Of a DNA stretch of 64,000 bases, positions 49,326 to 64,000 are shown piece by piece. The DNA is taken from positions 30,476,912 through 30,540,911 of the forward strand of contig NC_092675.1 of the NCBI RefSeq assembly GCF_964355755.1. The letters run 5' to 3'. Within the stretch, counting starts at the first letter, position 1. Every line of letters begins with the position of its first letter. The notes beneath the pieces are model-generated. The model worked only from the letters and a program-made list of their open reading frames with translations, had not been told where the DNA came from and did no database searches. The DNA is from Antedon mediterranea. Taxonomy: Eukaryota > Animalia > Echinodermata. The position numbers and the translations under genes are program-made.

Positions 49326-51571
49326 TTAGTAAGAAAAGAAAAATGTGGATGGCGTTACTAGATTGCTTAGAGAGTATATTTGTTGACGACGAACATTTTG
49401 TACTTTGACTAGAATTACTTTCACGTCTCCTGCGTCAATGTTACTTATCATGTTATTTTCTGGAATAAAATAATTAGGTAAATTTCTTTTCTGCAAAAAG
49501 TGGATAAGAAAATTTTGAAGATCTAGAAATCTATCACCCAGATTAGAATCTATCCAATCAGTTGGAGATGTTCTCTCACAAAGCCAAAACATGGTGGTCT
49601 TCATGTGATAGGAGGACAGTACCTTCGGTTCCTGTAATGAAAATAAATCAAATATAATACTCCATTAAAACAATCAATATCGAATTTGAATTCATAGACT
49701 ATATCGTGTCGTCTTCCTTCGCCATCTACATAAAGTGGTTCATTTTAAATATAAACAGTTAAAAAATTACCTAGCTTAGTTCATAGTCAACATACCAAGT
49801 ACTAGTATTGTAGTGTTGAAGTCTAAATATTCTTTACTATCTTGTATCGTGCAACAACGGTACAATTAAGTGACATTTATTTTATTCACAATTCAAACTC
49901 ACCTTAAAGTGTCTTCTCCAAAGTAGCTTGAAAATCATGTAACATTTACGTTGTTGGTCTGTAAATGTGTGTGCCAACGTACGTTCTGCCACAGAAAATG
50001 ACAACCGCCATTCTAAGTCGAGTCCTTTTCCACCAGGATAATATTTTGGAACAATATGGTAGCCGTCTGCAATAATCTTTTCTACAGTTGTCTTTTGAGG
50101 CCATTTTCGTTGTCTTGATACCCAAGAATTGGCAATGGTAGGCCAATTTACTCCATTCAAAGCGATAGCTACATCAACTGTTTGGTCAAACTGTAGTACT
50201 GAACCTGTGACATTGTCAATCAATACGCATTTTTAGGTACATTATTGTATTTGTCTATCGGTGGGGAATTAATTGATTTGAATATATACAAACTATGAGG
50301 ATTAAGTATCATTTACTGGATACTTTTTTGAAGTGTTCTTAATTCTGTTCTTCTTGTATTTGTATAGTTTGGGTATTGGACCATGTAGCAGGGCTTTCTA
50401 TAGGCCTAACAATATATATTTTAGGGTTTTTTCTCTGCCTTTTTCTTAACCTACCGGTACGGTATATTCCACTATATCTATCTCAACCTCAATTTGTATA
50501 AGTTGTTATTAATCTGTCGACGATTTCTTGAGTGTTGTTAAAAAGTAAACCATGGGCCAACTGATAAAATCATACTAAGGAAGCATTACAATTCTGGTAT
50601 CATAACTATGAATAATTTGTTTAACCTACCAAATGGTTCTTGTGATTCGTAACAAACAGAAATTGTTTGTACGGGTCCTTCTTGAACAAGTCTCAGTTTG
50701 CCTTTAAACTCATCTACTTTATTGTTTTCATTCCTAGTAAATTCAGACTGAACGGCTTTGAGTCGTCCTCTGGTATATTGCTCTTGGATACCTAATAGTT
50801 TCGAACGAGTTAAAAGCATTTCACCACTTGAAGATCTCGCACAAAGATGCTTGGTAAATCCAAGGCTCGTGTATGATTGAAGACTCTCTGGAATAAATAT
50901 TGTTACGTAACCAGAATGAACAGACGGACGCCATGTAAAAGTAGGACACTCTTGACGTTGTTGGCGATTTCCAATATCTTCCATTTCTGTTATAAAAGAT
51001 TTTTTGTGAACATCTTCTTTTTCTTCCATCATTCCTCTGGGTACGTCATTAGCAATCGTAAATTCTTCACAAGTTGTATTATGAGGATCTTCGGCAGCAA
51101 TAGCAAGAGGAATCATCAAGTCCATTTCATCGTCTACGTAAGACATTCCAGGACCGCTGTTATCTGATATTGCAAAGCCTTCGCTCGTGCTGCCTGTCCA
51201 TACAATGCCACTCATATCCTTGATGTTATCAAAGCATGGTCTCATCAACTCAAAAACCTGCTGAAATCGTTTAGGCAATGTATTTGTGTTTTCTGGCGGC
51301 GTACTATGTTTCTGAAACTTTGCTAGCATTTCACTTTGAATCCGAAGAATTGTTGTTATAAATGCCACGTGCTCGTTTGAAATCGGATCCACTCGTGTAG
51401 CGGGATCACTATGTATTTTATACAAACTTACAGAACGTTTGATGACTGTCTTTATGTCGATTTCATTCAGATATCCTTTTCGAGACCTCTGGTTAATCTC
51501 GTCGTATTCAGCAGATGAATTTTCTGCTTTCTTAAAAGCTTCTGTCAAAAAGCGGTCAGACCACCTTACAC
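49326..51571 (-). CDS. cGLR/Mab-21 catalytic domain of gene D (3 exons)
   Basis: Motifs align with cGAS GS..E-x-D..D, WRLSFS, SSYHVKT and YFIPE.N. No zinc-thumb H...CC insertion. Confidence 0.92.
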
Positions 51572-54500
51572 CTGAATATGAAACATATAAAGTAAGCTAA
51601 ATAGGAGCTTAGTGAATGTATTGTTAGATAGGGCATATTACGTTTGCGTTTATTTCCGCAATAACTTAATGTGACACTATAGAACAGACTGGTGTTCTAT
51701 ACTAACATTTATGATTATGTGAACTAGTGCTGTTCCGCCGCACTACTATCAAATCGATTTTGAACAATACCATGAAAGAGACTCTTTAACACACTCGGCG
51801 TGGTACGAAACAGCGCTAGTTTCTTAATTATTATAATAACAATATTTAAAAACAAAAACTCACTTTTCATTCGGTAACCAGTTTTTGAACTGCGTCCACC
51901 TTCATTTAAAAAGAAAAGATAATCAAATACATAACAAATAATATAAATAAAAAACAACGCCGATGCCACCCACTCAATCGGGTAGTAAACTAAAGCATGT
52001 TACCTTTCCGTGTTGTTTCTACTTTTGCTTGATGACTGTAAGTAAACATAGTCTTGCCCTTTTCTGATGACACGTTTTTAACTACTTTTATTCTGATCGC
52101 ATATAAGGTTCCTGGACTGAGGTTAGTTATCTCAAATTCCGGTTTAGTACTTCTTTCGTCCACTGAACCAGCTTCTGTGAACTCTGACCTAGGGACAGTA
52201 GTTTTGTATTCGACGACGAACTCGTCGATTTGCCGTTCTGTACCACAGTCGTCATTACTGACGTCATAAGCAGGCCAATATACACTGATTGAGCTATCCG
52301 TCTTATTCAATAATTTTGGCGCTGACAACATTGGTATAGCGTCTGTAAAAATGCAATCGAATATTAATTATTATTTTATTCTACTTTTATGAACAAGTCA
52401 ACACTTGTAGATAGACTTTACGATTTTGTGTATATTACGTTGTATAATTGAACTCCGACAATTTTTACGCCAAATATAATTACTATACAAAATAAACCTA
52501 CATCTACAGCAGACAATCATTACTAAACAATTAAATGGGATAGTATACATAAATTATAATGCCTAACAAGAGAGGACGATCCACTTGCGTTGAAAACGAC
52601 GCAAAACAATGTGTGCTGAAGCTGCTTCAACCTTCATTTAAAAAGAAAAGATAATTGCTTAACAATTAATTATAGACAAAACAACGCCGATGCCACCCAC
52701 TCAATAGGGTAGTAAATTCAAGCATGTTACCTTTCCGTGTTGTGCCTAATATTGCATTAGGACTGTAAGTAAACATAGTCTTGTCATTTTCTGATGACAC
52801 GTTTTTAACTACTTTTATTCTGATCGCATAAAAGGTTCCTGGACTGAGGTTGGTTATCTCAAATTCCGGTTCAGTACTACTTCCGTCCACTGAACCTGCT
52901 TCTTTGAAATCTGATCTAGGGAAAGTAGTTTTGTATTCAACGACGAATTCGTCAATTTGCCGTTGTGTACCACAGTCGTCATTACTGACGTCATAAGCAG
53001 GCCAATATACACTGACTGAGCTATTCGTCTTATTCAATAATTTTGGCGCAGATGACAACATTGGTATAGCTTCTGTAAAAAATGCAATCGATATTAATTA
53101 TTAATTTATTCCACTTTATGAACTACACAACTACTATGAACAAGCACTCAAATTTTCCAGTCGACGTACCATGCAGTCGGCTAGCGCATGCGCATAGCAT
53201 AACAATGCCGTAATAGGGAGCAGTTGACATAGTCGACGTGAAATTCTTGCTTTTAAAACGTCGCGAAATAATGTGTGCTTGAAAGGCCTGGCCTTCTATC
53301 TGCCGAATCTGTCGTAAGCAGACACTTGTCCGGACCTGAGGATGTTGAACTGTAAAATACATCAAGGAAGTAAACTCACTACTTTCTCGATAAATGTTTT
53401 TCAGGTTAGGATTTTTATCTTCATTAATGAAGTCAAGTCCATAGGGTCCTCGAAGGCGTGACAATGACGTAGACTTTCCACCAACAACCTTAACAGAAAA
53501 TTGTTCTTTGAAAAGAGAAGAAAATGTCATATCAAATATCCTAGTAATTATAAAAAGTATGTAGACCTAAATGAAAGATTGGGATAGCGTGGTATCAAAT
53601 TTAACACAAGCAAAAGGCCCTATTTTTTGTCTTTAAATCCATCCGATGTGGTATACTGTATAGTTGACTCAATATTTTACTTTATGATTAAATATAATCT
53701 AATGCATTATATTTACCGAAGGGTTCATCATTCGTAGTGTCAGGTGATTCTTGAAGAATTATTTGTCCAATATTTTCGGTGATTGATACTTGTACGCATT
53801 TTCCACTTGTCGCAACTAGTGCATACACAGCTAAACATAAATCAATGAAAGGCGTATTATTATCATTATCATCATCATTATTAATATTATTATTAATGGT
53901 CTTGTTTGTTAAATTGTTTAATAAATAATTTCCTGTAAAAAGGAACCATAGTGTACATAAGGACAAAGAACTGTAACTGAAGATAAAATTAGTACTTTTG
54001 TATCTTAAGATCTTATTTTTAATTAACAGATATGTTTTTCAATAATTTCAGTTGTAATGTAATGTTGAGATTTTCCAAATAAATTCAAATTAGGTCAACA
54101 ATAATCATATTCATCCTTTAATGGGAACTCACCTCCAGGAATATTCCGAAATGCGATGCCTTGATATTTCCCATTATATAGAAAAGCCAAAGTACCGTCT
54201 GGATGTAAAACAAAGCCTACTTTATCATCAACTTGAATATTTCTTAGGTTTAGTTTGTACCCTCCACCAATCGTTTCAAAATTACAAAAAAGGATATTGT
54301 CTCTGAAAACAGAATTGTGTATGAATCGTGAGATACACATATTGAATACCACAATTCATTTACAGTAAATTATTTTTTCATTACAATATTTTATTTATTT
54401 CAATTGTTTATTGTTATAAAAAAAAATATAGTGCCATGTTTTTTTATTTATGATAATACATTGTTGGGATCCTACAATTAAAGCTATGCTTACAGAATGG

Positions 54501-57500
54501 GATGTTGTTGTTGATATACGTTGTATGCATTTTCACTGGAATAGTTTTTATTCTCGAGAAATAAATGTGTTGCAGTACGGCCAAATTGATTGATATATTT
54601 CTAAACTTCTCTTACTGATGTGTGGCAATACCAACCAGTTATACTGCGCTACAATGTAGCTCTTCCGCCTATTCTATGTTAGCCATGTTTGTTTGTTTTT
54701 GCGAGAGTCAACAATTATTGCTTACTGCCCTTTAGCCAATGAATATTTAACACAGGGAAGTAACCAATGTATCGTAGAAAAATCAAACTTACAACTATAA
54801 TATTCCTGATTACAGAAAGGTTTCATGAATATATAATGAAGAATCTAGAATTTGACGTTTTTTCACAAACCTTAAAAACCAGAATCCACTACCTTTTCCA
54901 AAACCATCTCCTTCATAAAAGATATCATCGGGAAATGAATTGTAGATACAGACGCCTAAAACATAATATTGATTTGCTTAATTATCAAATTAAACAATAA
55001 TTAGAAGATATTTAATGATTCTAAACATCCTAAATAAATTCCACGAAAAATCCAATGAATTAAATATATTTTTCATTAAAAATCAAATTTCTGGACGGAA
55101 TCATACAAATTTACACACACCAAATTGTGGAACATGATGAATATATTATTATTATTATTATTAATATTAAAGGTTCAATCTTGATTGCATAATAATGTGG
55201 AATAATGATATCCTACCAAACTCCATTGAGCTGTTATGACTGTCATCTACTTTGTCAATTTTTAACTCGAAAAGTCTTGACGTCTGAATCGGTTGGTTAG
55301 AAACAAATACCGCTCTGTTATGTTTCACACCGCTGTTTATACGATAAGCGATAGTTCCATCGCTGTTGACTTCGCCGTGATCCCTGACTGGTTTCAAAGT
55401 ATACGGAACCGCAGCTGTATGTTCCTAAACACAATTAAAACATGTATTTATCAGAATTCGAACATGACTCTTTTTGGCTATTATTTTTGGCGATGTCTAC
55501 TGCAGCTTCATGGTCGCTGGACATGTTACCGTACGAGAATCGAGTGAATAATAACAGTAAAGATGGGGATACCTGTAAGAGTAAAAATTACTATCGAGTT
55601 TGTACATTATAGAAGCCTTCGATTTTTGTCGACTAGGATTATTGTGTGCAGGAGGGTGGAGATGGTGTGACGCGCTTTCTCAGACGATGATAAACGAGCA
55701 AATCGAAGGCTCCTTATTATTAGGCTATAATGTTACTCTTACTTGTTTACTTGTTTTTGTTGTTATTGACAGTTGGACATCTTCTTCGGTTGTTCTACTG
55801 TTTGCATTGCTATTTGTTTCTGTCATTTTACTGGTTATATTAACATCTCTCTGGTCATCTGTTTCATCTTCTTTACTGGTTACATTGACATCTCTCTGGT
55901 CATCTGTTTCATCTTCTTTACTGGTTACACCATTTTTCTCTTCACCAATAAGTTCATCCATGTTACTGCTTGTGGTTTTGCAACTTGCTTTTATCTCTGT
56001 CTTGACGACCTTACTGGTCACATCAATTGAATGTGAAGCATCCACTTTGCTGGCTTTGCACATTTCCGTACCTTCTTCGTCTTTGTTCATTGTATTACTT
56101 TCAGTTGGCGTGTTGTTAGAAGCCGTGTTAGATTCTGATTTCTGGGTTATGCTTTGGCCTCTGTATTTATTAGTTTGTTCTTCAAGGTTTATAAGCTAGG
56201 AATATAGAGATAAAATCAATGTCTTACCAATAAAAAAAAAATCAGAATAAAGAGGTCCCTTTTTGTCTTTCTTTTTCCATTTAAGAAACATAATATTTAC
56301 CTTTTGTTTAAAATGCTGATAATATGCGTCAGTGATTGTGTGCATTAAGTTTAGTGCTCCATGTTCAATAAGTACTTCCGGGTCACAATCACTGTAGTTA
56401 ACTAGAATTTCGATTGACGTTTTAATAATTGTCCATTTCAGCTCATCTGTATAAACTGTTTCTGTTTTCGCTTTCCATACATCATTAATGATACGAATAA
56501 GTATATCTGTTAAATGAATACATTTATATATTTTTTTCATTATATATATTATTCATGTTTAGTTTTTATTTGTCTTTTGTTTCTCTCACCTTTTCTTGAA
56601 ATTTACAATTTAGATAATATAATTTTGGACAAGAAATTATAATACCGTCATAGTAAAAAAAAAAGACATGGTATTGCACTGTACCTTACAATCTAATTTG
56701 GTTAAAAATTTGTTAAATATAAAAAATAAATAAAAAAGTGATCAGTTACTATCAAACAACAATTTGTCCTTCAGGTATTTATCCGATAATTATCCGATTT
56801 GAATGAGATAATTATCGGTACATTTATCTCGAGTGGAATCGTTTAAACCCCATTTCCGCAGACAGTTTATCGGTAAATCATCACTTAATCTTTATCGGTT
56901 AATTTTTGGTGGCGGAAACACGACCTAAAAGCAGTAAATATTACCTGGCCATCCATGCTCATTCATATGTTTCAGAACACTTTCTCTCTCATGTTGTGGT
57001 GCAAGAATCTTTTTCACAGCAGTAACAATGTCTAAGACGTCATTGTTTGCAAAACTATCACATTGCAATAGAACGCAGTAAAGATTGTCCAACATCTGAA
57101 TATTATCAAGACAATCACTTTCCGAAGTTTTTTCGCCTGAAGTAAATTATTACAAACGTTACATACCTATTAACCTACAATAATTATACACTGTCCACCA
57201 GTACCACCTCATGCGCATCTTTCTATTTTCAAATTTACATTTAAAACTCTATGTTCCTTTATAAGTTCTCTTTAACCTTTCCAACTCCTACCTTTCCAAC
57301 GCCTACCAAAACAGTAATATCGATTATATTTTGCTGAGCATTCCAAACAAAACAATTATGAATATAGTAATTACTTTTATCTTGTATGTCATATCCTTCT
57401 TGGCATTGTTCATCAGTAGATGGGCAAGCAACATCACTAACTCCCCAGTCGCTAAGAACTTGCTTTACGTAGCGTACAAGTTTCTCATTGTCAGCATTCT

Positions 57501-59520
57501 TTAACATTTTGCATAGCAATGGCACAGATTTTTCAATTATCTAAATATTAAATATTATTTTTCTAAACATAATAATATGAAGTATGCTATTATTTAATCA
57601 AATTTAAATTATTTATTTTTATAACAGTTCAGTGAACTTATGCTACGCACTGTGTACTAAACACGTAATCGTTTGTGTTTATTTTAAAACATTATTATTT
57701 TGGTATTACAAGAAAATACAATCTTGTATGAGTATAAATTAGGGTACTGCATAAATATCTTTTGAATTAAAACAATTGTCTGTAAGATTATCGAGTTTCA
57801 TTTAAAAGAAGGTAATGACAAAGAACAGAGTTGTGTAAATGTGTATACGGTAATTCAACATAAACTAATTTCATAACAATTTAAAAATGTGCAATCTATA
57901 ATTTGTTTTAAAGATGAAATATATTTTTAGCTGTTGTTAGACTAACAGTAACCTCGGTGTTGTGAAATCTATTATAAAATGGTAAGACAATAACACTGTT
58001 TCTAGGATGAACAACATTATATTTATGCGAATTTGTTGACCTTTTTGATAAAAGATGTGAAAATTACAATTTGCTGCTGTTTTAAATCTACCATTAGATT
58101 TTGAAAAAATATAGAGGAAATAGCATTGAAACATAATCTCAGCATAAAACTACGTTGAAACGCTAGTTTTGTGTTCCATGGTGGAAAAGCTTTTATATAT
58201 TGTTTCAGGATTTATGCTTCAGTTAGAAATAATAATATTGGCATAGATATGAATGCATTCTTTTGAATTTTTAACCGTGAAGTTATTATAGTGGGGCAGA
58301 TTAGAGTTCGGTTTAATCTATTCATTATTATAAAATTAAAATCACTTCCTCTTTGGCGCTCTTGAAGCGTTACCGTACTTCAAGACATAGATCTATTTTC
58401 ATGTTTGATTATAAATTAACCTTGTGCGAGTCCCAAATGTATTCTCCAATGCTCACTTATGACCAACACACTTGTTTTAATTAATTTACTATTCTAATTT
58501 GTATTTTAAGACAAATATGACGTCATCGTACCTGATCTTTGTTGAGAGGATGTACAGCTAAATTAACGAGTGCTTCAACCAATTCCTGTACAGAGAATCC
58601 TGTTGATTTACCTGAGAGTGTGTTATCCAAAACTGAAGTTATCTCATTTATTACTCCTAAGAAATAGAAAAAGTGTCAACTTTAAAAACAAACAAAAATA
58701 CATAATAACTGAAAATATTACAAAATATTACAAGCAGATAACTTAATAGTACATTCTATTCTGTGACTTTATTAGGATTAGGTCATTATTTCACCCAAAA
58801 AAATATATAGAACTATTTTGATTGCTGTCTCAATGAAATCCAGTTAATGTTGATAAAACAAATAATAAATCTCTGTAATGCTATTTGGTGTAATGTCTAG
58901 TTTTGTTTATATTGAAAATAATCTCTTGAATGGAAATTAAAGATAGATAATATAGTTTTGTTGTAATTGATATGATTCGTCCTACCGTGTTTATCCTCTA
59001 GTAACTCCACGTCGATGACAGGATCTGCTATGTAGCTAATTGCTATCAGAGAATACAGACATCTCCATTTTGATGGTGAACCTTTAAAGATGTCAAGTAT
59101 TTTCCTCCACTCAGGAGTGCGAAACAACTCTCGATTTTTTCTACTTTTAGACAAGTTGCTTATAACACACAGTGAAGAATTTAAAAGCAGTTCCATCCTC
59201 TGTAATAATTTAACATAATGGATAAATATTTATTTTGATACTATTATAATTAATAATATCAATAATATAGTGGGCTATCATCTTCACAGCATCATCATCA
59301 GATAAAACAAATGATATCTAAGGATTTTAATTTGTATTAGGATTATTCAAGCAATGACAACATCTAACAGTACATTCAATTTTGTCATCTTATCATCAAT
59401 TATTATACAAGAGAATTACAATACCTGTGAAGTTTTCAGGTCATCTTCCCAAAAGTTTCCTTGACGAGGGGGCATCAAAGGGCCCGATATTGGTGGAAAG
59501 AGACTTTCCAATTCTGCCAT
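49326..59520 (-). CDS. Gene D: ARM-like repeats - low-complexity spacer - Neuralized (NHR) domain - FN3 x2 - cGAS-like Mab-21 nucleotidyltransferase (cGLR), ~1461 aa
   Basis: 17 GT-AG exons with matching phases and no stops: 59425-59520, 58986-59199, 58532-58656, 57375-57540, 56945-57136, 56301-56506, 55743-56195, 55217-55424, 54871-54955, 54133-54302, 53717-53830, 53380-53505, 52731-53072, 52004-52342, 50630-51571, 49903-50204, 49326-49631. NTase motifs: GSTSEG..DEMDLM, TVDVAIAL..WP, WRLSFSVAE, LSSYHMKT, LPNYFIPENN. The start ATG is uncertain because the frame is open upstream to at least 59625. Confidence 0.8.
52004..53072 (-). CDS. Two tandem FN3 exons (phase 1-1), duplicated with flanking intron (period ~727 bp)
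   Basis: SSISVYW...FVVEY...FEITNLSPGTLYAIRIKVV. Exons are 52004-52342 and 52731-53072. Confidence 0.85.
53717..55424 (-). CDS. Neuralized homology repeat (NHR) domain of gene D, NEURL4-like
   Basis: AVFVSNQPI..LFELKIDK..SMEFGVC...FWFL...YKLNLRNIQVDDKVGFVLHPDGTLAFLYNGKYQGIAFRNIPGAVYALVATSGKCVQVSI follows the NHR consensus. Confidence 0.8.
55829..55930 (-). repeat. 45-bp coding tandem repeat (VTSKEDETDDQRDVN x2) in the acidic spacer exon
   Basis: Visible in ORF 55725..56090. Confidence 0.85.
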
Positions 59521-60829: not shown

Positions 60830-63800
60830 CTAATTAAAATTGAAGAATGATATTGGAGCAACCAGATCTTTCAGATAGAATGCTTGGTGACGACGAACAT
60901 TCTGCACTTTGGCTAGAATTACTTTCACATCTTCTGCGTCAATGTTACTTATCATGTTATTTTCTGGAATAAAGTAATTAGGTAAATTTTCTTTCTGTAA
61001 AAACTGAATAAGGAAATTTTGAAGATCTAGAAATCTATCACCCAGATTAGAATCTATCCAATCAGTTGGAGATGTTCTCTCACAAAGCCAAAACATGGTG
61101 GTCTTGATGTGATAGGAGGACAGTACCTTCGGTTCCTGTAACAAATTACCAATAATAAACATTAATACAACTTATATTTAAATAGCGGTACTTAAACAAA
61201 CCAAGCTAAAACACACTTAATGGTCATCTCCGACACTCCAGTTATATCAGACTAAACATGCTTAACTTTTAACTTCAACGTTCGGTGCCATGCAACAATT
61301 CAAATAAACCCACCTTAAAACATTTTCTCCAAAGTTTCTTAAAGACCATATAACATTTACGTTGATTTTCTGTAAATGTATGTGCTAATGTACGTTCTGC
61401 CATAGAAAACGACAACCGCCATTCTAAGTCGATTCCTTTTCCAGCAGGATAATATTTTGGAACAAGATGATAGCCGTCTGTAATAATCTTTTCTACAATT
61501 GTTTTTTTAGGCCATTCACGCTTTCTTGATATCCAAGGATTGGCGATGGTTGGCCAATTTACTCCATTCAAAGCGATAGCTACATCAACTGTTTGGTCAA
61601 ACTCTAATACTGAACCTATAACAACAAGTAATTAAACATAATGTAAATACATTCACTACAATTGACTAATTACTGATATGGACTACACTACATAACACTT
61701 TCAAACTAATAATTATAGGATTTTAGTCATACATACCGCCTGGTTCTTTTGATTCGTAACAAACAGAAATTGTTTGTACAGGTCCTTCTTGAACAAGTCT
61801 CAGTTTTCCTTTAAATTCATCTTTTTCGTTTTCATTCTCATTCTTGGTAATTTCAGACTGAACGGCATTGAGCCGTCTTCTGGTATACTCCTCTTGGATA
61901 CCTAATAGTTTCGAACGAGTTAACAGAATTTTACCATTTAAAAATCTCGCACAGAGATGCTTGGTAAATCCTAGGCTCGTGTATGATTGAAGACTGTCTG
62001 GAATAGATATTGTTACGTAACCAGGATGAACAGACGGACGCCATGTAAAAGTAGGACACTCTTGACGTTGTTGGCGCTTTCCAATATCTTCCAGTTCTGT
62101 TATAAAACATTCTTTGTTAACGTCTTTTTCTTCTTTCATAATTCTACTGCTCATTTCATCCACAATTTTAAAATCTTCACAAGGGGTTGTATGATGAGGA
62201 TCTTCGGCAGCAATAGCAAGAGGAATCATCAAGTCCATTTCATCGTCTACGTAAGACATTCCAGGACCACTGTTATCTGCTATTGCAAAGCCTTCGCTCG
62301 TGCTGCCTGTCCATACAATACCACTCATATCCTTGATGTTATCAAAGCATGGTCTCACCAAATCAAAAACCTGCTGAAATCGTTTAGGCAATGTATTTGT
62401 GTTATCTGGAAGTTGTTTATTTTTCTGAAATAGTACTATCAATTTACTTTGAAGTTCAACACTTGTTGTGATGAACCTCATGTGATCGTTAGAGATCGGA
62501 TCCACTCGAGTAGCTGGATTATTGTGAGTTTTGTACAAGTTAACAGAAAACCCTATCAATGTTCTTAAGTCTTTTTCGTTTAAGTATCCTTTTCTAGATC
62601 TCTGATTTATCTCAAATAGTGGATTAAGCGCCTGTTCTGTTTTCACATAGAACTCATTTATCGAGTCGTCTAAAGAATTAAAAAAGAAGTTATCATTATT
62701 TTTACTACTGTACCGAAACTTGTTATTTTCAAATGTTTATAATATTTTGATAGTTTGAGAAGACTTAGGACACTAACCTGGTTTATTGTAGACCTCTTTC
62801 ATTTTCGGATGTGTATCTTCATTAACGAAGTCAAAACCATATGGTGCACGCATGCGTGACACGGACACAGGATTATTGCCAACAGTCTTAACAGAAAATG
62901 ATTCTTAAAAAGTGAAAATTCAGGTTACAGATACATACGCCATGTTATAACTATCTTTGTGATGAACACAATTCTGGTGAAGTATTAATAAGTCTTTTTT
63001 TTATTAAAACAAATAGAATTTTGATTATCAAAACTACGAAACTTTTCTTTACCAAAGGGTTCATCAACGGTACTGTCGGGTGACTTTTGCTGAAGTATTT
63101 TACCAACATTTTCTGTGATTGACACCTGAACACATTTTCCACTTGTTGCGACTAGTGCATACACACCTAAATTGAAAATAAAATAAATATCAACGTCTAC
63201 ATAAATCACTTTATTTCAACCTATTTTTTTAACAATGATTGATCAAACTCACTGTTATTTTATTCATAATACACTTACAAAACATGAAATAATTTATAAC
63301 ACACTCAATCAAAGTAACATATATTTCTGTTCATAATAATTATTTGACAATAATTTGATTAAAGTAAGAGAGGGCAAAAAAAAAATCAAAGCTTGTGTGA
63401 GGCAGCCCATACAATTACAAAGAAAACAGGATAATACGGGAACCGGAAGCAAGACAAAAACATTCTTCTACAACATAGTATTACATGCAGGACAATTCCA
63501 ATGTTGTTTAACGTTATGTTATGCCAATAAACTGTAATGCACCACATAATACCACGACTATATGCTGTTTCCCACTTTCAACTACAATTTTTGTTTTCCT
63601 AAAGTCTAACAATTTACTCCTATAGAATTGTATGTGACAGTATAAACAGGTATTAGAACAGAACTCACCTCCAGGAATATTGTGACAGTATAAACAGGTA
63701 TTAGAACAGAACTCACCTCCAGGAATATTCCGAAATGCGATGCCTTGATATTTCCCATTATATAGAAAAGCCAAAGTACCGTCTCGATGTAAAACAAAGC

Positions 63801-63886
63801 CTACTTTATCATCAACTTGAATGTTTCTTAGGTTTAGTTTGTACCCTCCACCAATCGTTTGAAAATCGCGCCAAAGATCATCATCT
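60830..63886 (-). CDS. Gene E (3' part): NHR - cGAS-like Mab-21 nucleotidyltransferase (cGLR), paralog of D without FN3; 5' end outside the window
   Basis: Exons 63717-63886, 63053-63166, 62778-62903, 61737-62669, 61314-61615 and 60830-61135. Five of the six exon sizes (170, 114, 126, 302, 306) equal those of D, and the catalytic motifs are the same. Confidence 0.88.
63633..63728 (-). repeat. 48-bp tandem duplication spanning a splice donor of gene E
   Basis: TGTGACAGTATAAACAGGTATTAGAACAGAACTCACCTCCAGGAATAT x2. Donors GAG|GTGAGT follow exon ends 63717 and 63669. Confidence 0.92.
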
Positions 63887-64000
63887 CTGTAAAAAATAGT
63901 TTCCATAAACATTCTTTTCACAATTAAAATTGAATGTGTTGTAGTCATCAGTCAATTTCACTTTCGCAAACTTGCTCAAAGCATTAAAGCGAAAGTTAGT

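Follow-up and report, generated by a model that had tools for sequence, protein, structure and literature searches.

The 64,000-nt stretch of the crinoid Antedon mediterranea analysed here (NC_092675.1:30,476,912-30,540,911, forward; hereafter the window, to which all positions refer) carries on its minus strand a gene of 18 exons that runs from an ATG at 59520 to a stop at 49326. It encodes one cytosol-type protein of 1473 aa in which a circularly permuted armadillo (ARM) domain is followed by a Neuralized (NHR) domain, a pair of FN3 domains and a cGAS-like enzyme whose catalytic motifs are intact; a search of the protein for hydrophobic segments found none scoring above 1.32. The 18-exon translation is letter for letter that of XP_071954287.1 (P0001), which was retrieved using the large enzyme exon as the query (six matches among 1014 candidates). 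A preliminary description of this DNA had joined 17 exons into an open reading frame of 1461 aa; its GT-AG introns and consistent phases stood, but it had missed a 36-nt micro-exon (51899-51864) that adds 12 residues and leaves all 17 introns GT-AG. The ARM halves are named half 1 and half 2 by their order in the family of ARM-NHR-cGLR proteins (cGLR, cGAS-like receptor) to which the gene belongs, and P0006 is its Saccoglossus orthologue. The features of the gene are as follows:

59520-59425, 59199-58986, 58656-58532, 57540-57375, 57136-56945, 56506-56301, minus strand: exons 1-6
56195-55743, 55424-55217, 54955-54871, 54302-54133, 53830-53717, 53505-53380, minus strand: exons 7-12
53072-52731, 52342-52004, 51899-51864, 51571-50630, 50204-49903, 49631-49326, minus strand: exons 13-18
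57433..59439, minus strand: ARM half 1, aa 28-181, exons 1-4, aligned with the second half of the armadillo domain in ARM-TIR proteins
56178..57125, minus strand: ARM half 2, aa 205-339, exons 5-6 and the start of exon 7, aligned with the first half of the armadillo domain in ARM-TIR proteins
55743..56195, minus strand: exon 7, low-complexity linker with a 45-nt tandem repeat and no near-invariant position in the family
53766..55409, minus strand: Neuralized (NHR) domain, aa 490-660, exons 8-11 (Pfam; NEURL4 NHR 2e63, E 1.7e-10)
53380..53505, minus strand: exon 12, family-conserved segment between NHR and enzyme, predicted as a beta-hairpin in P0006
52731..53072, minus strand: FN3 copy a, single phase 1-1 exon (Pfam fn3)
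52004..52342, minus strand: FN3 copy b, single phase 1-1 exon (Pfam fn3)
51864..51899, minus strand: micro-exon of 36 nt, with X1 contig joints skipping 104 and 292 nt
49326..51571, minus strand: cGLR/Mab-21 domain, exons 16-18 (Pfam PF03281, Mab-21, and PF20266, Mab-21_C)
51194-51189, 51128, 51122 and 50175, minus strand: catalytic GS, E1106, D1108 and D1282, respectively

Splice joints were sought for introns 6-17 in contigs from run X1, whose nature as RNA is only a guess, and from two DNA-like runs, X2 and X3. In X1, exact-length joints were present for 8 of the 12 introns (8, 10-15 and 17) and none of these occurred in X2 or X3, whilst the X1 joints at introns 9 and 16 carry extra letters, which match paralog sequence at intron 9 and, by parallel, are read as paralog sequence at intron 16 too. 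Since the joints of introns 12-15 involve FN3 and micro-exon sequence, which the paralog lacks, the chain from the hairpin segment through both FN3 exons and the micro-exon to Mab-21 is that of this gene. The preliminary description had proposed one fused reading frame from NHR through Mab-21, with transcripts ending between the NHR/FN3 and Mab-21 exons as the finding that would speak for separate genes; the X1 joints instead cross the FN3-to-Mab-21 step. The X1 contigs are short, and a single transcript is therefore read from overlapping joints. Short high-copy repeats lie within introns at 51746-51807 and 53137-53171, with loose contig ends at both and very high depth at the first.

A Pfam scan of the protein returned Neuralized, fn3 (twice), Mab-21 and Mab-21_C, and the NHR and cGLR folds were predicted in the P0006 model, in agreement with the domains named earlier. 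The catalytic residues G1084-S1085, E1106, D1108 and D1282 are all in place, as the preliminary description had it. Across the 15 aligned family proteins the GS-T-S-E-G-F stretch and the E-x-D are invariant, and the third Asp, which in a profile alignment falls opposite the third Asp of cGAS and Sp-cGLR1, is found in all 14 that extend that far. The core is enlarged, with 171 aa separating the E-x-D from the third Asp in this protein and 150-192 aa in the eight family proteins measured, compared with 50-90 in the published cGLR active-site motif, h[QT]GS-X8-20-[DE]h[DE]h-X50-90-h[DE]h (Li et al., 2023, PMC9980059). Here the motif reads WTGS, a gap of 20, EMDL and VDV, the last spacing being long owing to insertions, and relatives with an equally long last spacing were accepted in Table S1 of the same study. 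Homology extends over both the nucleotidyltransferase core (PF03281) and the C-terminal helix bundle (PF20266). The fold predicted for P0006 matches MB21D2 (Z 23.6, root-mean-square deviation (rmsd) 5.1, 357 aligned), Sp-cGLR1 (Z 22.6) and mouse cGAS (Z 21.2), and Sp-cGLR1 is also the top profile match of the family enzyme; the model itself has a mean predicted local distance difference test score (pLDDT) of 71.8 and a predicted template modelling score (pTM) of 0.51, its active-site loop being uncertain. By these sequence and fold criteria the gene is classed as a cGLR.

The absence of a zinc thumb, noted earlier from the letters, is borne out by a profile alignment in which the family shows gaps opposite the human cGAS insertion. 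The isoelectric point (pI) of the enzyme domain is 4.9-7.7 across 14 family proteins, with 7.3 in this copy, and 5.5-8.6 across the family when the acidic insert is left out, compared with >8.5, along with a basic binding groove, in nucleic-acid-sensing cGLRs (Li et al., 2023, PMC9980059). For the family as a whole, charge speaks rather against nucleic-acid sensing; it is borderline for this copy, whose enzyme is near neutral rather than strongly acidic. The ligand other than nucleic acid that the preliminary description proposed is accordingly a conjecture.

A fold model of the N-terminal 319 aa reached a pLDDT of 89 and a pTM of 0.86. The ARM profile was searched against 1.84 billion representatives, giving 367 matches of which the best 150 were listed, and was then cut into halves that were scored on the 144 new proteins among these 150 and on 12 family members. 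Half 1 precedes half 2 in 11 of the 12 family members, the remaining one being incomplete, whereas 109 of the new proteins have half 2 followed by half 1, 27 have half 1 only, two have half 2 only and six have half 1 followed by half 2. Of these six, five are gene models from crinoids or acorn worms that consist of ARM alone, and P0069, the remaining one, carries the half 2-half 1 order twice over; among the matches listed, the order is thus 2-1 in 110/110 outside proteins with both halves, as against 1-2 in 11/11 from the family. A reciprocal profile of 24 ARM-TIR proteins, family members excluded, gave swapped halves in all 11 complete family members, its positions 172-313 matching P0001 aa 26-165 (69 bits) and its positions 43-166 matching aa 205-324 (21 bits, E 1.6e-6; 68 bits in P0006). 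That the halves are merely interchangeable repeats was ruled out by cross-scores of at most 7.1 bits. In outside proteins the halves are contiguous (median offset 129, n = 101), whilst 13 of the 14 family proteins have a linker of 14-49 aa between them and P0009, the odd one out, is a split-match artefact; intron 4 of the gene falls in this linker. Because the profile order is swapped in both directions, the halves are not interchangeable and contiguity outside the family is set against a linker within it, the family domain is, by its sequence, a circular permutation of the ARM-TIR-type armadillo domain. The kinship to invertebrate ARM-TIR proteins that had been proposed for the N-terminal repeats is upheld by the reciprocal profiles; no particular tie to SARM1 emerged, SARM1 being absent among the listed ARM sequence and structure matches (in one case the 60 shown of 120; permutation weakens such searches), and the permutation itself had gone unseen.

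VIA structure matches to the ARM model reached a Z of 11.3 at most, those of low rmsd covering one half each, a pattern that fits permutation but is weak alone, and with Foldseek the same model found nothing at E ≤ 0.001. A stringent check of motif order likewise proved weak, with 120 of 137 outside proteins lacking a motif, 16 in the outside order and one in the family order. A word-indexed search with the ARM region, which retrieved two proteins only and missed known relatives, was uninformative. Tandem ARM domains are present in relatives P0063, P0069 and others, and duplication followed by deletion through such a tandem would be a plausible route to the permuted form.

The NHR fold of the P0006 model superposes on the NEURL4 NHR (Z 22.1, rmsd 2.4, 167 aligned) and PF07177 (Neuralized) was found in 14 of the 15 family members. 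FN3 occurs in one of these 15, this gene being the only such case among those found. Copies a and b are identical in 313 of 342 columns and their intron flanks are duplicated too. The two FN3 domains of the preliminary description are real, but they stem from a private, recent exon shuffle and duplication outside the conserved design, and most likely form a tolerated spacer inserted by exon shuffling. In Anneissia P0003 a segment of the exon-12 type is tandemly repeated at aa ~765-880, the position at which the FN3 pair entered here, so that the site appears to tolerate insertions. As to the origin of the pair, there was no match to the other FN3 exons of the window at E ≤ 1 and none in PDB sequences. 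A second copy of the micro-exon acceptor lies in the intron after copy a (52622-52655) and runs into an in-frame stop, but no micro-exon is retained at that site.

The family was searched using Saccoglossus P0006 as the query, a word-limited search that gave 53 matches among 7991 scored candidates. Neuralized and Mab-21 occur together in 13 of the 53, all from crinoids (Antedon, Anneissia) or acorn worms (Saccoglossus, Ptychodera, Glandiceps), and 10 proteins of four species have both ARM halves, NHR and Mab-21. In a Mab-21 tree of 51 of the 53 domains, the incomplete P0003 and P0014 being left out, 13 family rows lie on one side of a branch with support of 95/88 and the crinoids are nested among hemichordate lineages. 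This suggests an origin of the family before the crinoid and hemichordate phyla split, whilst absence elsewhere carries little weight in a word-limited search. Anneissia has three STING genes and Saccoglossus one. A metagenome scan gave 209 pattern matches and no relative. A tandem paralog lies beside the gene, its stop 1.3 kb upstream of the ATG of this gene, with 74% identity in the large enzyme exon:

60833..64000, minus strand: 3' part of P0002 (XP_071954309.1, 1213 aa), ARM-NHR-cGLR without FN3

On the other side, open reading frame translations at 300-47400 of the minus strand indicate a receptor-like gene in roughly three tandem copies, the exons of which we take to be SRCR, EGF-like, Ig-like, FN3 and tyrosine-phosphatase-like.

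Among the ARM matches listed, many of them fragments, TIR was found in 75 of the 137 outside relatives and Mab-21 in none. Pfam TIR_2 was found in 35 of 57 outside proteins chosen mostly for length, together with single CARD and kinase cases, and the sources of 20 proteins that were looked up include molluscs, amphioxus, a crinoid, acorn worms and a lungfish. At the C-terminus of nine of the 137 lies a domain bearing HGT and E-x-E-W motifs, here called ADP-ribosyltransferase-like (ART-like), and eight of these nine proteins also have an NHR. The two motifs correspond to the catalytic HGS and ELEW of NEURL4 (PMC8932523), and two of the NHR-ARM-ART-like proteins are annotated as neuralized-like protein 4 (Ptychodera); Pfam gave no match over the domain, so the call rests on the motifs. 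Because the same ARM type stands before TIR (75/137) and before ART-like domains (9/137), it behaves like an exchangeable regulatory unit of signalling enzymes. The ART-like set comprises P0077, P0081, P0090, P0092, P0121, P0141, P0155, P0166 and P0098, of which P0121 adds an SH2 and P0098 has Mind-bomb SH3 repeats in place of the NHR. P0059, from the lungfish Protopterus annectens, is an ARM-TIR-SAM-like protein, and the ARM-TIR type thus reaches vertebrates.

In docking of the P0006 ARM domain against its hairpin plus cGLR, folded without alignment, the score was 0.57 and that of the best control 0.01, with contact agreement of at least 63% across runs and a partner pLDDT of at least 78. The mark used is reached by 51/78 solved complexes and 2/108 mismatches, and in eukaryotes by 71/105 solved complexes and 2/126 unrelated pairs. 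Contact between the ARM and enzyme domains is hence weakly predicted, which modestly raises the idea, already put forward in the preliminary description, that ARM and NHR gate the enzyme. In the mechanism that we tentatively favour, and consider quite possible, the protein would be an ARM/NHR-gated cyclic-nucleotide synthase upstream of STING that is released by a protein ligand. The ARM domain would dock on the enzyme and hold it off, its effect being taken as inhibitory and not activating; a protein ligand that binds to NHR or ARM, both of them protein-binding modules, would release it; and the released enzyme would make a predicted cyclic dinucleotide for STING.

Several results weigh against this mechanism. 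The docking pass is of a kind that the tool grades more often wrong than right, gave no interface and used P0006, and scores of 0.60 or less comprise only 5 of the 78 solved complexes but all four passing mismatches. The pTM of P0006 was that of the whole chain and only 0.51. MB21D2, the best structural match, is without clear immune function in the sources covered, and the accessions and genera of the relatives, looked for in the 140-enzyme screen table of Li et al. (2023, PMC9980059), were not among its entries. The enzyme of this copy without its acidic insert has a pI of 8.4 and a basic spine region, which leaves room for RNA binding. At the gene level, the ARM-to-NHR joint (exon 7-exon 8) is absent among the X1 joints listed, which are all but two and among which introns 6 and 7 do not appear. 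There are also five ARM-only gene models (P0054-P0058), crinoid or acorn-worm, of which P0058 and P0056 appear to neighbour the NHR-cGLR models P0012 (Glandiceps) and P0005 (Anneissia); these pairs are either split annotations or real split genes.

An alternative, to which the charge of this copy lends support, is that the enzyme is activated by dsRNA or DNA, like most tested cGLRs, with ARM and NHR serving only to localise, cluster or stabilise it. Insect dsRNA-sensing cGLRs are likewise not known to carry a zinc thumb, and crinoid members share a basic spine region of pI 9.2-9.9. Li et al. (2023, PMC9980059) describe 15 active cGLRs, nine of which respond to nucleic acid, seven of them to dsRNA. 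We nevertheless judge this alternative rather unlikely, as 8 of 14 family enzyme domains are at pI ≤ 6.3 even without the insert, ARM and NHR are retained in both phyla, and docking of the ARM domain on the enzyme is weakly predicted. MB21D2, as the closest solved relative in sequence and fold, speaks instead for a Mab-21-fold nucleotidyltransferase with another output, which would nucleotidylate a substrate recruited by NHR or ARM or would act as a non-immune scaffold like MAB21L1, MB21D2 or MiD49; the unusual spacing to the third Asp points the same way, as does the sister NHR-ARM-ART architecture, which would modify proteins. Such an output seems unlikely to us given the caged two-lobe fold, the C-terminal helix bundle, the full set of catalytic motifs and the standing of Sp-cGLR1, an active cyclic-dinucleotide synthase, as top profile match and tied on Z, whilst tandem duplication and exon shuffling would fit an immune gene.

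The exon 7-exon 8 joint and the ARM-only models would also be explained if exons 1-7 stood as a gene of their own that annotation had wrongly joined to an NHR-FN3-cGLR gene downstream, for which the consecutive locus numbers of P0058/P0012 and the equal-sized contigs carrying P0056/P0005 could be cited. This we hold to be very unlikely. Intron 7 is a 318-nt GT-AG intron of matching phase 0, exon 8 has no Met ahead of the NHR core, the ten fused models come from four species, and an X1 contig enters exon 8 from upstream sequence, albeit with 18 differences, so that it is read as the paralog.

The preliminary description did not recognise the architecture, and this holds in part. The domain table of Li et al. 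(2023, PMC9980059) has five SPRY/SPRY_NHR_like rows, each belonging to a family member from Anneissia or Saccoglossus, and the four of these five that were looked up are present in their Table S1, so that the NHR-cGLR fusion is already catalogued in supplementary material, undiscussed in the main-text passages covered. The same table has 28 FN3 matches and no ARM or HEAT rows. In the passages covered, the authors propose non-nucleic-acid ligands for acidic cGLRs and leave open the activators of cGLRs unlike the nucleic-acid sensors. Literature searches found no paper linking cGLR with neuralized, although Fig. S2A of Li et al. may picture such an architecture, and none on circular permutation with armadillo repeat and TIR domain; in further searches, no title or opening of an abstract among those listed pointed to the family. 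Where Mab-21 and neuralized co-occurred in the texts covered they were unconnected, and the architecture is not described in the parts covered of PMC10732462, PMC8195603, PMC9334734 and bioRxiv 10.1101/2025.09.04.674280. What appears new is the permuted ARM-TIR-type domain and the sharing of this ARM type among TIR, ART-like and cGLR outputs, neither of which was found in these searches. The family carries candidate sensor domains on the enzyme's own chain, kept in two phyla, and so bears on the open question of cGLR activators. It comes with natural controls in the tandem paralog without FN3, the acidic hemichordate members and the TIR and ART proteins with unpermuted ARM. A natural armadillo circular permutation, with tandem-ARM relatives that offer a plausible route to it, is of separate interest for protein evolution.

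Compared with animal cGLRs (Sp-cGLR1, 8gjy; human MB21D2, 7lt1), the family shares the Mab-21 nucleotidyltransferase core and helix bundle, the GS, the E-x-D and the third Asp, and differs in its enlarged core, its N-terminal permuted ARM domain, its conserved hairpin segment and, in this copy, the FN3 pair. The predicted fold and the aligned third Asp are likewise shared with vertebrate cGAS, whose N-terminus is a basic tail, whereas here there is no zinc thumb, the enzyme domain is near neutral and the N-terminal domains are folded. With SARM1 the family would share the principle that an ARM domain controls an enzyme acting on nucleotides, but it has no SAM or TIR domain, and no TIR family is among the Pfam matches of the 15 members. 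The ARM domain is homologous, by reciprocal profiles, to that of the ARM-TIR(-SAM-like) proteins of molluscs, amphioxus, crinoids and lungfish, but its halves are swapped, the output is a cGLR rather than a TIR, and a linker and an NHR lie between ARM and enzyme. NHR-ARM-ART proteins and NEURL4 have in common with the family an NHR, the same ARM type and a C-terminal enzyme, the order there being NHR-ARM (native)-ART and here ARM (permuted)-NHR-cGLR. It is conceivable, if doubtful, that animals have a modular ARM(+NHR) sensor plugged into TIR, NEURL4-type ADP-ribosyltransferase and cGAS-like outputs, in which the permuted ARM domain would clamp the cGLR shut or chain neighbours by half swapping and would be switched by a protein ligand, not nucleic acid; such a three-output sensor could be likened to the effector swapping of bacterial defence systems.

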